From the IMG/VR virus record IMGVR_UViG_3300004241_000028, positions 1 through 37,134 of that record: 37,134 nucleotides of DNA; one strand, 5' to 3'. Both the position numbers and the translations under genes were made by a program. Below, one piece after another: positions 19,195 through 30,142 of the stretch. The notes beneath the pieces were generated by a model. The model was not told where the DNA came from. It saw nothing but the letters and a program-made list of their open reading frames with translations, and did not search any database. Source of the stretch: a virus. Lineage: Duplodnaviria; Caudoviricetes. How positions within the stretch are numbered: the first letter of the stretch is position 1; each line of letters starts with the position of its first letter.

Positions 19195-19220
19195 AAGGCC
19201 CGGCGTTGACCGGGCTTTTA
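19195..19220. terminator. Bidirectional intrinsic terminator between the early arm and the lysis island
   Basis: AAGGCCCGG-CGTTGA-CCGGGCTTTT at a convergence point. Confidence 0.7.
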
Positions 19221-19294: not shown

Positions 19295-19588
19295 TCAGAC
19301 TTTGATCTTGATAATCTTAATCTTGAGCATCCACGCTATCGCAATCTCGATCCGTGCACCGCGTGACCATATCCACCCCGGAAGGGCCGCCACGGCCTCG
19401 CATTTGAGCATAGCGGGGATATCTTCGAGCATATAGTCAATCCACTTCTTGCCGGGATGGTACGGTGATACGTCGAATGGGGATACCGGGTCGAAGCCTA
19501 GCCCTTGGATGATTATTCCCGCCTTGTCGAACGCTTCCCGGTTGAAGTCTTTACGCCCGGTGATCGGGCCGGAGATGTAGATTTTCAA
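19295..19588 (-). CDS. DUF4406 / nucleoside deoxyribosyltransferase-like protein
   Basis: KIYISGPITG..N..AF, W.DYM..DI..MLKCEAVAALPGW..SRGARIE..IA. Confidence 0.85.
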   Translation of the reverse strand: MKIYISGPITGRKDFNREAFDKAGIIIQGLGFDPVSPFDVSPYHPGKKWIDYMLEDIPAMLKCEAVAALPGWIWSRGARIEIAIAWMLKIKIIKIKV

Positions 19589-19598
19589 TTGATACCTT

Positions 19599-20009
19599 TC
19601 AATGGTTCCCAGCTGTTCCTGTTTTCTTTTCGTATGATCGCATTCCCGAAAGCCCGAGTATTCCCGTGATAACCGGCCAAAGGTCTGACATATCGGCCTC
19701 GACTATCGGAATTCCGAATGCCTTGAGGATCGGGTTGACAAGATAAATCATCGCCACTACTACCACACCGAGCCAACCGAATGCGGGACGCCACCCCGCG
19801 ACGAAGAAGCTCGCGCTTGACGCCTCGACCTTGTTTATCTCGGCCTGTGCGTTTCTGGCAGCATTCTCGAACTCGACCATCTTCAGTTCAAGTTCTGCCT
19901 TTTTCTCGGCGCTGATGTCTCCGGTGATCGCAGAGCGCATGTCGCCAGCGAACTTGCCCGCGCCGGAAAATATCTCCCCTATTCCCTTCAGGTCTATGCC
20001 TACTCCCAT
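19599..20009 (-). CDS. Holin (3TM / GTA-type holin family)
   Basis: EINKVEA.S.SFFVAGWRPAFGW, TM helices, GILGLSGMRSYEK. Confidence 0.85.
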   Translation of the reverse strand: MGVGIDLKGIGEIFSGAGKFAGDMRSAITGDISAEKKAELELKMVEFENAARNAQAEINKVEASSASFFVAGWRPAFGWLGVVVVAMIYLVNPILKAFGIPIVEADMSDLWPVITGILGLSGMRSYEKKTGTAGNH

Positions 20010-20018
20010 GGTTTCCCC

Positions 20019-20477
20019 CTATGCTTCATACGCGATCATAACGCAGTTCCCATACCCCGGATCGTTCTCCATGATCTTGACGACCTTCCCCGGCATGGAA
20101 CGATTCCAGTATATTCGGAAGTGCTCGGCCGTCTGGTGGCGATCCTCCGGCACGAGGTCAAAGGCGCAGTGAATCTTGTTATAGATTTTGAAGTATTCGA
20201 TATCGGCGTAGAACGTGGTTATGAAACAATCGACTCGGAATAGCTCCTTGTCGATGAAAAGTACAAGCTGCTTTGCCGATGGCCGGGGGCTTCCGTTCGC
20301 CACGTCGTCAAGGGTATACCGGCCCTTCTGCTCTTCCTCAACAACGTCAAGGTGGAGATGCGCCCCGGACCCGCTCCCGGTGTTCCCCATGACGCCGATA
20401 ATGTCGCCGCGGTGGATAATCTGGCCCGGACGTAGCGTCGTCTCCGCAAGGTGGGCCAAGCGGGATGTATAAATCAT
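20019..20477 (-). CDS. Endolysin, M23 family peptidase, circularly permuted
   Basis: AHL...GQII.RGDIIG.MGNTG.G.GAHLH at the N-terminus; ITTFY...HCAFD...GKVV...GYGNCVMI at the C-terminus; adjacent to the holin. Confidence 0.85.
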   Translation of the reverse strand: MIYTSRLAHLAETTLRPGQIIHRGDIIGVMGNTGSGSGAHLHLDVVEEEQKGRYTLDDVANGSPRPSAKQLVLFIDKELFRVDCFITTFYADIEYFKIYNKIHCAFDLVPEDRHQTAEHFRIYWNRSMPGKVVKIMENDPGYGNCVMIAYEA

Positions 20478-20791
20478 GTCTCTATCCTTGCCCGACCGAG
20501 TAGGAAATCGTCATATCGTATTTTTGCGTCTCGGGTTGTCTTTAGTGCCGCGTCTACGTTTCCATTGCAAATACCTTTTTGTGCTTCCAGGATGGCGATA
20601 AGCGCCTGCGTCTGCGGGCCTTGCATCTCCATAAGCGCGTTGACGGCTGGAACCATCTGCTCGATTGCCTGCGATTCAGGGGATCGGATTGTAACCCGCT
20701 TTCGTACCGCCGTTGCCATAAGCCCGTATATTCCTGTCACGATAAGCCCGATCAATACTCCAAGCGCTATGCTTATCAATCCAGAATCCAT
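20474..20791 (-). CDS. Single-TM lysis-cassette protein (antiholin, holin-like or i-spanin-like)
   Basis: N-terminal TM helix then helical soluble domain; first gene of the lysis island, ATGA overlap with the endolysin. Confidence 0.65.
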   Translation of the reverse strand: MDSGLISIALGVLIGLIVTGIYGLMATAVRKRVTIRSPESQAIEQMVPAVNALMEMQGPQTQALIAILEAQKGICNGNVDAALKTTRDAKIRYDDFLLGRARIET

Positions 20792-20823
20792 GCAGGCACC
20801 CCCAATAGTATCGTACTCGCTCT

Positions 20824-21852: not shown

Positions 21853-22296
21853 ATGATAGTCAACATCCTGATTCTTGCTGTAGCGGCGATCTTCTCCGCC
21901 TACGTAATCTACTCGGCCTGTCGCAAGTACATTGGCCGCAACCCGCAAGCCCCGAGCGCATGGACACGGCTCAAGGCGTGGTGGCCCGGTTTCGTCAAGC
22001 GGAACATAAACGACGATGATCCGTATGATGATGAAAGCCACGCGGCGACGAGATACAGGCATGGCGATTATATTGACTGGGCAACCATACCGGATAAATA
22101 TAAAGTAGTCGTACTTCAAGGACCGGGGTGGTATGCTGGTGAAGGCGCGGCGCGCATGTTTCAGGATATGACGCTTGTTTCTTGCGCCGATGATGATATG
22201 TGGGACGGGACGGGCGGGGATGACGTACCAGATGATGCCATCATCGGCCCGCTTCCCCCGTGGCGCGAATCGCTCCGCAAGAGGCCCGGGAAATGA
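21853..22296 (+). CDS. Membrane-anchored hypothetical protein
   Basis: N-terminal TM; C-terminal IDW..IPD.Y...PWRESLRKRP pattern. Confidence 0.65.
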   Translation: MIVNILILAVAAIFSAYVIYSACRKYIGRNPQAPSAWTRLKAWWPGFVKRNINDDDPYDDESHAATRYRHGDYIDWATIPDKYKVVVLQGPGWYAGEGAARMFQDMTLVSCADDDMWDGTGGDDVPDDAIIGPLPPWRESLRKRPGK

Positions 22297-22766
22297 AGCC
22301 CCTTGCCCTGTTGTTGCTTCTCGCCTGTATCCCTATTCACGCCGAGCAAGCCCGGTCGTTTTCAATCTACGACGCGGCGGTGTTGGGCACGGACATACCG
22401 GCCGAGCTGTTCCGGGCGCTTGCCATGGCCGAGAGCGGAGAGCGAGACAGCGCGACAGGCGACGACGGGGCGAGCATCGGGCGGTTCCAGCTTAACGAAA
22501 GGTTCAGGACCGAGCGGGTCAGGCTATACGGGGAGTACGATCCACGCGACCCGATACAGGCCGGGCGCGTTGCGGCGCAGATACTACAGGCGCATTACGA
22601 GCGGTTCCATTCGTGGCCGCTTGCTCTGACCGCCTACAACGCCGGGGCCGGTTACACGATCAAGCACGGTATACGATGGGCCTACGTGGATCGGGTCCAG
22701 ATGATGCTTGAACGCATAGGATCGCGGTTCCAGATTATCACATGTGCACGGGGAATAATCATATGA
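22293..22766 (+). CDS. Lytic transglycosylase (SLT) with signal peptide (start MKPLALLLL)
   Basis: ALAMAES catalytic Glu, IGRFQL, ALTAYNAG, YV..V; hydrophobic signal ending IHA|EQ. Confidence 0.85.
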   Translation: MKPLALLLLLACIPIHAEQARSFSIYDAAVLGTDIPAELFRALAMAESGERDSATGDDGASIGRFQLNERFRTERVRLYGEYDPRDPIQAGRVAAQILQAHYERFHSWPLALTAYNAGAGYTIKHGIRWAYVDRVQMMLERIGSRFQIITCARGIII

Positions 22767-23058: not shown

Positions 23059-25626
23059 ATGCTACAGATTCAGCTTCCCGATTACATAGACTTTTTGAAG
23101 TCTAAAATCAAGATCGCGCCTGATACCGGCATAGAGTTCAAGCCGGAGGATGTCAACCCGATCCTCAAGCCGCACGAGCGCGACAGCGTGCTATGGATGA
23201 CAAAGGGCGGACAGCGTGCGCTTTTTTCCAGCTTCGGACTTGGCAAGAGCCTTACGCAACTTGAAGCCTTGCGCCTCCTGATGTCAAGGTCGGAAGGGAA
23301 GGCGCTCATCGTCGCACCGCTCAACGTGGTCCCCGAGTTTATCAATGATTCCATGTTCCGGGGCCCATCGTTTGAGAAGGAAGCGGCGCGGCAGGGCCTT
23401 GACCTTGACAAGCTCCGCATTGACTTTGGCGTTCCCATCGAATACGTCAGGACGCAATCGGAGGCAGAGGCGTCTCCGTGCCGCATCGTGATAACGAACT
23501 ATGAGCGGGTCCGCGACGGCGATATCAACCCGGCATGGTTCACGGCTGTCACACTGGATGAGGCGTCAGTACTCCGCTCTTACGGATCAAAGACGTATCA
23601 GGAGTTCTTGCCTAAGTTCCAGCAGGTCCGGTACAAGTTCGTTGCCACAGCTACCCCGTCGCCTAACAAGTACAAGGAGCTTATCCACTATGCGGGCTTC
23701 CTTGGCATCATGGACACCGGGCAGGCACTTACCCGGTTCTTCCACCGCGATTCGACGCAAGCCAACAACCTGACCTTGTATCCGCACAAAGAGAAGGAAT
23801 TCTGGTTCTGGATTTCAACATGGGCGCTGTTCATAACGAAGCCTTCCGACCTTGGATACGACGATGCCGGCTACGACTTGCCCCCGCTGAACGTCATCTA
23901 TCACATGGTCAACGTCGATCACGCGACGGCCGGAATTGAGGACGACGGGCAGGTGAAGATGTTCAGGGACGCCGCGCTCGGGCTCCGCGACGCATCGAAG
24001 GAGAAGCGCGACAGCATCGGTTCCCGCATCGACAAGATGCTCGCTATCATTGAGGACGCTCCGGCCGATCATTTCATCATCTGGCACGACCTGGAGGACG
24101 AGCGCCGGGCTATCAAGAGGGCAGTACCGGAAGCTGCGGAGGTCTACGGCTCGCAGGATTACGAGAAGAATACCGAGATAACCAAAGCCTTCAAGGACGG
24201 CACCGTCAAGTATCTGGCCACTAAGCCGGACATGAGCGCCCAGGGCGGTAACATGCAGTACCATTGCCACAAGTGCATATTCCTTGGCATCGGGTACAAG
24301 TTCAATGATTTCATACAGGCGATCCACCGCATTTATCGGTTTATGCAGGATTATCCGGTCGAGGTGCATATCATCTACGCCGAGAGCGAGCAGGCTATCC
24401 TTGAAACGCTAAAGGCGAAGTGGGAGCAGCATAACTACCTCGTCGGGGAGATGACAAAGATTATCCGCGAGAATGGCCTTGCGTCAACAAACGTCCTAGA
24501 CAAGCTGTCGCGGACGATCAGCTTCAACCGCGAGGAAGTAAAGGGCCAGTATTACACTTCCATACTGAATGACAATTGCCTTGAGGTTCCAGGATGGGCG
24601 GACAATTCCATCGACCTTATCCATACCTCTATTCCATTCTCCAACCATTACGAGTACACGCCGACGTACAACGATTTCGGGCACAACGAGGATAACCGTA
24701 AGTTTTTCGAGCAGATGGACTACTTAACCCCGCACCTCTTGCGCATCCTGAAGCCGGGCCGCGTCTGCGCCGTTCACGTCAAGGACAGGATCCTGTTCGG
24801 CAACGCCACGGGTACGGGAATGCCGACCGTTGACCGATTCAGCGACGCGACCGCGGACCACTTCGAGCGCCACGGCTTTATGTTCATGGGCCGCATTACC
24901 ATCGACACGGACGTGGTTCGAGAGAATAATCAGACGTACCGGCTCGGCTGGACAGAGCAGTGCAAGGATGGGACCAAGATGGGCGTCGGCTGCCCGGAGT
25001 ACATCCTCCTGTTCCGCAAGCTCCCGAGCGACCTGTCGCGCGCCTACGCCGATGATCCGGTTGTCCACGACAAGATGGACTATACCCGCGCCCATTGGCA
25101 GATTGACGCCCATTCGCATTGGAAGTCATCGGGCGACAGGCTCTTGATGCTGGAAGAACTACGGGCTACGGAAGTATCCGAGCTTCAAGCCAAGTATCGC
25201 CAATTTTCACGCGAGAATCCGTACAACTACCGCGATCACGTCAAGCTCGCGGATGACCTCGAAGAGGATGGAAAGCTCCCGGCTTCGTTCATGGTTGTCG
25301 CTCCCGGATCGGAAAGCCAGTGGATATGGGACGACGTGAACCGGATGCGGACGCTGAACGGCGATCAGGCGCGGAAAGAGCTTACAATGCATATCTGCCC
25401 GCTACAGTTCGATATTGTCGAGCGCATCATTGAGAGGTTTTCAAACAAGGGCGAGCTGGTATTCGATCCATTCGCAGGGCTTTCAACCGTGCCGTACATG
25501 GCCGTGAAGATGGGCCGTCGCGGGATAGGAACAGAGCTTAATCCTGAATCGTGGCATGACGGTCTTGTATATCTGAAGGCGGCGGACATGGAAGTCTCGG
25601 CCCCGACCTTGTTTGATTTCAGTTGA
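23059..25626 (+). CDS. SNF2-like helicase fused to an N4/N6 (beta-class) DNA methyltransferase
   Basis: FGLGKS, LDEAS, TATPSPN, QAIHRIYRF; then DLIHTSIPF (motif IV), RILKPGR, HICPLQ, VFDPFAG (motif I). Confidence 0.9.
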   Translation: MLQIQLPDYIDFLKSKIKIAPDTGIEFKPEDVNPILKPHERDSVLWMTKGGQRALFSSFGLGKSLTQLEALRLLMSRSEGKALIVAPLNVVPEFINDSMFRGPSFEKEAARQGLDLDKLRIDFGVPIEYVRTQSEAEASPCRIVITNYERVRDGDINPAWFTAVTLDEASVLRSYGSKTYQEFLPKFQQVRYKFVATATPSPNKYKELIHYAGFLGIMDTGQALTRFFHRDSTQANNLTLYPHKEKEFWFWISTWALFITKPSDLGYDDAGYDLPPLNVIYHMVNVDHATAGIEDDGQVKMFRDAALGLRDASKEKRDSIGSRIDKMLAIIEDAPADHFIIWHDLEDERRAIKRAVPEAAEVYGSQDYEKNTEITKAFKDGTVKYLATKPDMSAQGGNMQYHCHKCIFLGIGYKFNDFIQAIHRIYRFMQDYPVEVHIIYAESEQAILETLKAKWEQHNYLVGEMTKIIRENGLASTNVLDKLSRTISFNREEVKGQYYTSILNDNCLEVPGWADNSIDLIHTSIPFSNHYEYTPTYNDFGHNEDNRKFFEQMDYLTPHLLRILKPGRVCAVHVKDRILFGNATGTGMPTVDRFSDATADHFERHGFMFMGRITIDTDVVRENNQTYRLGWTEQCKDGTKMGVGCPEYILLFRKLPSDLSRAYADDPVVHDKMDYTRAHWQIDAHSHWKSSGDRLLMLEELRATEVSELQAKYRQFSRENPYNYRDHVKLADDLEEDGKLPASFMVVAPGSESQWIWDDVNRMRTLNGDQARKELTMHICPLQFDIVERIIERFSNKGELVFDPFAGLSTVPYMAVKMGRRGIGTELNPESWHDGLVYLKAADMEVSAPTLFDFS

Positions 25627-29355: not shown

Positions 29356-29967
29356 CTACGGGTAGAGCATTCCCGCCACGAGGTACGTCGTTCCACCGTC
29401 GGCCATCACCTGCAATTCGTAGATGGCCTTGCGGGACAAGTATTCCTCTTCAGTTGCCGGATGTTCCTCGTACTTGATCGATCCGTCGAAGACGTAGACA
29501 AGATACAGGGCGTACTCCTCGTATGCTGGCCGGTCATCGATGATGACTACCGGAGGAGGAGGCACGCGGTCAACGTACAGGACTCCACCGTCGGCTATAG
29601 CCTGAATACGCCATATTTCGCGCCGGTCCGCTATGTCGGATCGAGGCCAGTCGAGATATTCCTTGATGATGTCATGGGTATCAGGCGCGGCAATGTAAGC
29701 ATCGGCCGGAGGAGCTTCCTCGATAGGCACGATCTCCTCGCCCTCGATGACAAAAAGCTGGTCATCGGTATGCGCAAGGTTGTATTCCTCCGCATAGTCG
29801 GCATAACTCTGGATCGTGGTGACGGCCTTCGACCTTGCCACGGTTCCTTCCTGAACTATTTCCCATGCGGAGTTGTACAGGCGGACGTTCGGCACGTCCA
29901 TGGGAACCTGCGAGCACGAGGCTAGAACGACGGCCAGCAGGATCATGATTATCGATTTACGGTTCAT
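29356..29967 (-). CDS. Lipoprotein (start MNRKSII), candidate superinfection exclusion
   Basis: Basic n-region, hydrophobic h-region, lipobox VLAS|C; GAGGAGG RBS; last gene after the tail fibre. Confidence 0.8.
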   Translation of the reverse strand: MNRKSIIMILLAVVLASCSQVPMDVPNVRLYNSAWEIVQEGTVARSKAVTTIQSYADYAEEYNLAHTDDQLFVIEGEEIVPIEEAPPADAYIAAPDTHDIIKEYLDWPRSDIADRREIWRIQAIADGGVLYVDRVPPPPVVIIDDRPAYEEYALYLVYVFDGSIKYEEHPATEEEYLSRKAIYELQVMADGGTTYLVAGMLYP

Positions 29968-30142
29968 CTGTGACCTCCTCGGGTACAGGGAAAGTATACG
30001 GCACTTCCCCATTGTACGCAACCCACGCGCCGCCACGGTTGGCCGCTTCGAGTTCGTACAGCGGCCAGTCGCGGGCCATTTCGTCGTCGGTCAATTCGTT
30101 GGCGTGTGCTATCTCGGTCTCATTGTGCAAGCATACAAACAT
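29957..30142 (-). CDS. Small acidic protein after the tail fibre (possible fibre chaperone)
   Basis: AAGGAG RBS; position. Confidence 0.6.
   Translation of the reverse strand: MFVCLHNETEIAHANELTDDEMARDWPLYELEAANRGGAWVAYNGEVPYTFPVPEEVTDEP

Follow-up and report, generated by a model that had tools for sequence, protein, structure and literature searches.

Peptidases of family M23 bind zinc through an H(x)nD motif and the second histidine of an HxH motif, and water is activated by the first histidine of HxH together with His260, as set out in the accessible portion of a review of the family (PMC9662197). The InterPro definition cited there has the domain run from Hx3D to HxH. The string "permut" occurs 0 times in that portion, and no permuted M23 peptidase was found in the literature searched (including the accessible part of bioRxiv 10.1101/2025.01.14.632903); supplements, subscription journals and the texts of MEROPS, ECOD and InterPro, where an earlier description could exist, lay outside this scope. 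For the HABAS or barrel-sandwich hybrid domains, permutation is described between families, not within the M23 peptidases (PMC11515920, in the part available).

The window analyzed here comprises an entire virus record (37,134 bases; CheckV completeness, 100%), in which the portal, coat and tail-accessory genes of a P22-like phage are present. At 20019..20477 on its minus strand lies the gene for cpM23, a circularly permuted M23 peptidase and likely endolysin of 152 residues, encoded in one frame and having no hydrophobic segment. Its motifs occur in the order LAHL (H9), GNTG, HLH (H40 and H42), ITTFY (residues 86-90), HCAFD (H103 and D107), GKVV and GYGN (141-144), and the chain ends with AYEA and the stop codon. 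This single-frame ORF and its motifs, running from 20477 to 20019, had been described in a sequence-only reading of the DNA, and all of them were present in the stated order. The features of PF01551 are there (H(x)nD, HxH and a histidine ca. 30 residues ahead of HxH). However, the canonical progression from Hx3D to HxH is not: HxH precedes HxxxD, by a median of 62 residues in the family, and cpM23 was therefore filed as a permuted variant rather than as a canonical member of M23. Residues 1-78 (20244..20477, minus strand) correspond to the canonical second half, with the H9 strand, GNTG, the HxH of H40/H42, and a helical and C-terminal segment; residues 76-152 (20022..20252, minus strand) correspond to the canonical first half, with ITT.Y, the HxxxD of H103/D107, G.V and GYGN.V.I. 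The former assignment was made with Pfam and VIA, the latter with hhalign and a VIA comparison of a half-model.

In Pfam, the M23 profile matched residues 3-50 of cpM23 to profile positions 45-92 of 96 with 43.6 bits (cut-off, 28.7), and there was no other match. The C-terminal half submitted alone gave no M23 match at E-values up to 10. The expectation that standard M23 profiles would score the protein as two fragments was thus not borne out in Pfam; because only residues 3-50 are recognized, databases label cpM23 as a plain M23 protein. A canonical-M23 HMM was built from 38 canonical domains cut from library matches that aligned only to the N-terminal half of the query. Against this HMM, native cpM23 scored 50.4 bits (profile 72-119, residues 3-50) plus 12.4 bits (profile 13-67, residues 88-149), whereas the re-permuted sequence scored 74.7 bits as a single domain, as the sequence-only reading had anticipated. 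Controls in which the C-terminal half was shuffled (n = 200) had a mean of 51.7 bits, a standard deviation of 1.3, and a maximum of 58.9. Profile-profile comparison in hhalign placed the C-terminal half on canonical columns 24-67 (94.8%). When the family profile was run on PDB sequences, the swap appeared weakly, e.g. in Csd3, where residues 214-257 fell on profile 99-150 and 262-309 on profile 5-51.

Structure models were computed with AF2 for full-length cpM23 (pLDDT 95.7, pTM 0.90) and for residues 76-152 alone (pLDDT 95.2); the sequences behind these models are those of the profile tests. With order-dependent aligners, the match to M23 structures covered only ca. residues 1-78 (to 90 for one entry). 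Using VIA, residues 1-78 of the full model were placed on residues 252-316 of LytM (2b0p; Z 3.2, rmsd 2.5, 65 aligned), and the half-model of 76-152 was placed on 188-251 of the same entry (Z 2.6, rmsd 3.3, 64 aligned). Out of 48,161 chains, 15 matched the C-half model with a Z of at least 2, and every one has the M23/LytM fold; we take CbpA (5gt1), one of the 15, to be of this fold. In six entries, LytM and EnvC among them, the two halves of cpM23 abut in swapped order. Given as the range for the C-terminal half followed by that for the N-terminal half, these are 2b0p (188-251/252-316), 4bh5 (298-360/360-419), 8tzl (261-323/323-382), 7qrl (482-544/544-609), 6smk (6-70/70-129) and 2gu1 (202-272/272-327). 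The Z-scores of the half matches (2.6-3.4) are each weak alone, and Foldseek yielded no match at E ≤ 0.001 for the full model (PDB, BFVD) or the half-model, so the structural weight lies in the abutting pattern and not in the scores. With that reading of the scores, the predicted halves match the LytM β-sheet fold at Z 2.6-3.4, and the proposed likeness to LytM held in the form of the abutting swapped ranges of 2b0p.

The models and motif spacings also indicate where the chain may have been cut and rejoined. From G143 to H9 across the chain ends, there are 18 residues, including Met1; the corresponding canonical spacing from G to H is 17 in 21 of 23 domains (the 23 of the 38 that were readable by pattern). 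This spacing places the predicted cut in the hairpin turn and leaves hardly any residue missing, in agreement with the earlier placement of the C-terminus at the β-turn that leads into the first residues. A linker of ca. 40 residues had also been proposed. This region is no plain linker, since the alignment to LytM's canonical C-terminal segment extends to ca. residue 78; the old termini are therefore predicted to be joined near residues 78-86.

Relatives were collected in two ways. A word search returned 31 proteins of 139-172 residues, and an exhaustive search returned 978 matches, of which the best 150 were listed; all 181 proteins were fetched. The permuted profile was spanned by 147 of these, and removal of five tandem canonical proteins left 142 members with the same swapped order. 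The rest of the 181 comprised 27 proteins of canonical order and 12 fragments or partial sequences. Re-permutation raised the score by more than 10 bits in 122 of the 142 listed members, and the domain stands alone in 105 of them. A search for longer homologs returned 19 proteins, all in canonical order; fused permuted forms nonetheless exist. Pfam analysis of 39 library matches, mostly the longer ones, identified LysM (6), SH3 (2), SLH (2), CW_7 (1), GH25 (2), NAGPA (8) and S8 (4) domains, and 11 of the 39 carry wall-binding domains. The matches obtained in a scan with P0114 were LysM and C-terminal ones. Fusions of the permuted domain to subtilase S8 and/or NAGPA domains, which are unusual partners for a lysin, were observed in P0059, P0102, P0134 and P0137 and in P0058, P0084, P0087, P0097 and P0099. 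Nine of the 142 members have an N-terminal extension of more than 25 residues, none of them EnvC-like by Pfam (P0035 was outside the scan).

The poor detectability of the C-terminal half, to which Pfam is blind and which scores 15.1 bits by itself on the canonical-M23 HMM, would suit an artefact, i.e. an assembly error, or half of an M23 domain that was truncated and fused to unrelated sequence with a chance resemblance to the first half. This explanation is exceedingly improbable. The swapped order is common to the 142 listed relatives; all 15 structural matches of the C-terminal half are to M23 first halves; and contigs from three other studies bridge the junction. These contigs (X2, covering 20062-20818 with 3 differences; X3, 20104-20366; and X4, 20006-20279) have no joint inside the gene, which disposes of the misassembly that the sequence-only reading had set out as a check. 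Identity over 8,325 bases was also seen with locus L001, which may come from the same source. In all four relatives compared (4/4), third-position changes predominate in the N-terminal and C-terminal halves alike. In effect, the artefact is refuted by the relatives, the structural matches and the bridging contigs. Taken with the profile re-permutation, we regard it as practically certain that cpM23 is a real, conserved circular permutation of an M23/LytM peptidase.

The catalytic-motif residues are kept in the swapped order, as had been claimed for the zinc ligands of this protein. In the listed members, H103 and D107 (within HxxxD, 20157..20171, minus strand; both predicted zinc ligands) are present in 142 of 142, H40 in 141 and H42 in 140. 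The latter two form HxH (20352..20360, minus strand), in which H40 is predicted to activate water and H42 to bind zinc, with roles taken from the accessible part of PMC9662197. H9 (20451..20453, minus strand) lies 31 residues ahead of HxH (the family median is 32) and is likely the equivalent of LytM His260, whose role comes from the same source; it is kept in 131 of 142, the remaining 11 being gaps. All five residues occur together in 128. This conservation bears on a different reading, namely that cpM23 folds and binds to the wall or to a partner yet has poor catalytic activity, in the manner of EnvC or SpoIIQ, or that it has a role in the virion instead of in lysis. Degenerate M23 folds are common according to the part of PMC9662197 that was available, and SpoIIQ and EnvC are among the best matches of the half-model. 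However, degenerate M23 proteins lose the very residues that are retained here, and the gene is set apart from the structural genes of this phage, between two membrane-protein genes. A poor catalyst or a virion protein is accordingly very unlikely.

Those neighbors form the lysis cassette in which we place the permuted peptidase. Upstream, at 20474..20791 (minus strand), is a gene for 105 residues with an N-terminal hydrophobic segment; its stop codon overlaps the start of cpM23 (ATGA). It matches phrog_9428 (unknown function; E = 0.0014), a homolog that is 57% identical occupies the equivalent position in the related locus L004, and its product is possibly a holin helper. Starting 9 nt past the cpM23 stop is a holin-family gene of 136 residues (19599..20009, minus strand) that matches GTA_holin_3TM in Pfam (E = 8.2e-14) and the phrog_3427 holin (E = 6.8e-22). 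Both the coupling to a membrane-protein gene and the adjacent holin had been pointed out earlier, and both were confirmed. The last gene of the four-gene run encodes a DUF4406 protein (19295..19588, minus strand; Pfam E = 5e-19) and is probably not a lysis gene. The terminator-like hairpin 3′ of the run (19198..19215, minus strand) is weak because one was found versus 1.9 expected by chance. A search for promoter-like sites was negative. In close relatives, the cpM23 stop is immediately followed by a different small membrane gene with two helices (L062, 1104-1334; the boundary in the window is at 20006), i.e. these relatives exchange the downstream gene directly after that stop.

In being a phage gene whose product lacks an export signal or hydrophobic segment and whose neighbor belongs to a holin family, cpM23 resembles a canonical holin-dependent endolysin. 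A scan of the 50 ORFs of the window found one other wall enzyme, an SLT lytic transglycosylase (22260..22766, plus strand; Pfam SLT E = 8.3e-13) with a signal-like N-terminus as judged by eye; it had been overlooked in the sequence-only reading. The main endolysin might accordingly be this enzyme, with cpM23 being permuted and active but an accessory cutter of cross-links, and some M23 lysin domains do add little to lysis, e.g. that of phage 2638A (PMC9662197, in the part available). We consider this unlikely: cpM23, not the SLT gene, is within the holin cassette, whereas the latter is located outside it, on the opposite strand amid replication and recombination genes, and its family is rare, occurring in 2 of 26 related records and 1 of 9 near-complete ones. 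Elsewhere in the window, a fusion of a helicase and a DNA methyltransferase (855 residues) was noted at 23059-25626 (plus strand), as was a lipoprotein-like gene without a family match behind the tail fibre (29356-30036, minus strand). The latter is 67% identical to a gene located two genes upstream of the cpM23 homolog in locus L010; the cassette of the present phage may formerly have been located behind the tail genes and have since moved.

Genomic context was surveyed at 47 loci (27 viral and 20 metagenomic) after leaving out the phage's own record, 3 duplicates or partial copies, 1 further partial copy, and 14 loci with only the N-terminal half. Where a neighbor was called, a hydrophobic gene was located upstream in 32 of 42 loci and downstream in 33 of 40; these counts include near-duplicates and have no background control. 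Among 57 neighbors scanned, there were three matches to named holin families, two to "hemolysin" families, and seven (at six loci) weak matches to Rz-like spanins. Seven lysin families were screened in relatives, SLT in the 26 records mentioned above and six others in 17 of 27 records, chosen by length or completeness. Amidase_2, Amidase_3, M15_4, Phage_lysozyme and GH25 were found in 0 of the 17 (10 of which are at least 90% complete); GH108 was likewise found in 0 of 17, with a query that matched no control genome either. Among cultured phages, none covered 80% of a query and none carried the whole domain. A scan of genome contigs returned three matches to the N-terminal half only, and the ends of two proviruses had no placeable host genes. 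Based on this context, i.e. the holin neighbor, the hydrophobic flanking genes, the wall-binding domains of fused relatives and the absence of amidase, lysozyme, M15 and GH25 matches from 10 near-complete genomes, cpM23 is likely the endolysin of the phage, as had been proposed.

No spanin-like gene was found in the 37,134-base window. In relatives, out-of-frame overlapping gene pairs follow the holin-like gene (L004, 6660-7118/6662-6994; L024, 3875-4336/3880-4260; also L023, L025, L027 and L005). One protein of each pair has a signal-like N-terminus and a C-terminal hydrophobic helix, and the partner has an N-terminal hydrophobic segment or a lipobox. With their weak Rz-like matches, these look like Rz/Rz1-type pairs with reversed anchor topology. 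An automatic rule for such pairs found 6 of 27 and misses pairs that are visible by eye. Single lipoprotein-like genes that resemble u-spanins by eye, having a long helical middle and a C-terminal hydrophobic helix, were observed at L012 (6678-7196) and L104 (4251-4754), with similar ones in L008, L014 and L017. A lipase-like gene was also observed within the lysis cassettes of L104 (3664-4254; Lipase_3 E = 2.3e-7), L008 (6698-7285; E = 0.0047) and L014 (1669-2217; no Lipase_3 match).

A quick tree was calculated from 82 re-permuted and 47 canonical domains, the canonical sample being narrow. A branch with an SH-aLRT value of 98 set all 82 permuted domains apart, with P0177 inside their group; a single origin of the permuted family is suggested by these sequences. 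Residues 158-299 of P0177 constitute an M23 domain of canonical order that bears the family's loop signature ahead of HxxxD and sits on a long branch within the permuted clade; no relatives of P0177 were found. Circular permutation usually arises via duplication followed by trimming. Proteins with canonical M23 domains in tandem are frequent in the library matches; no direct intermediate was found.

The following scheme is proposed. The permuted module would have arisen in an ancestor, with the chain opened at the β-hairpin turn between the GYGN and YAHL strands and the original termini fused near residues 78-86, and would then have been kept under selection, to be fused later in other lineages to LysM, SH3, CW_7, SLH, GH25, NAGPA or S8 domains. 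The domain would fold as one unit. Mapping the roles described for canonical M23 enzymes to H103, D107, H42, H40 and H9, we infer that the first three would bind zinc and that H40 and H9 would activate water. Made without an export signal, cpM23 would cross the membrane via holin lesions and would cleave the peptide cross-links of peptidoglycan.

cpM23 would be a natural test of the effects of chain order on the folding, latency and bond specificity of M23 enzymes, and this 17-kDa single domain, with its ends at a new position, would be a natural template for studies of lysin domain fusion. For many uncultured phages in which the common endolysins are absent, it would also put a name to the likely lysis enzyme. 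As Pfam assigns such proteins to ordinary M23 from half of the domain, annotations conceal the class. That cpM23 is the founder of an undescribed, widespread class of endolysins, serving many uncultured phages of diderm and monoderm hosts as their standard wall hydrolase and often accompanied by spanin pairs of reversed topology, is a tentative proposal toward which we are slightly more skeptical than favorable; under this proposal, the swap would alter the shape of the M23 groove and the points at which the domain can be fused.

Several candidates for permuted forms outside this family were rejected. Gordonia lysin A, met by tblastn over residues 13-109, is a canonical M23 domain with an amidase, and the plasmid matches H43 and H41 are of canonical order (68 further plasmid records were outside this check). 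In the Atlas, M23 clusters have viral and Bacillota members, and the Pfam 38 family PF26482 is present in 27% of one cluster; PF26482 was not upheld as a label of the permuted variant, since two proteins of canonical order also carry it.

Among described phage enzymes, the lysin A proteins of Gordonia phages Kenosha and Figliar and the M23 protein of a Leptospira transposable prophage (PMC8705779, in the part available) resemble cpM23 in that the M23 gene adjoins a holin, and spanin-like genes occur in the relatives; unlike cpM23, the Kenosha and Figliar lysins combine an M23 domain of canonical order with an amidase. A natural swap of catalytic residues within a superfamily of wall peptidases has a parallel in the circularly permuted NlpC/P60 proteins (YaeF/G6R, LRAT-like; PMC6403190, in the part available), which have the unrelated fold of cysteine peptidases. 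Likewise similar are the M23B peptidases of PF01551 (LytM, 2b0p; lysostaphin, 4lxc; EnpA, 6smk; the phage 2638A endolysin domain, 6yj1; and ShyA), with which cpM23 shares HxxxD, HxH and the upstream histidine and to which its two halves align both in profile comparisons and as predicted structures. In contrast to these enzymes, the halves of cpM23 are reversed, its chain ends at the GYGN/YAHL hairpin, it has neither prodomain nor signal peptide, and it features an extra helical segment at ca. residues 50-78 and the family-specific W124.
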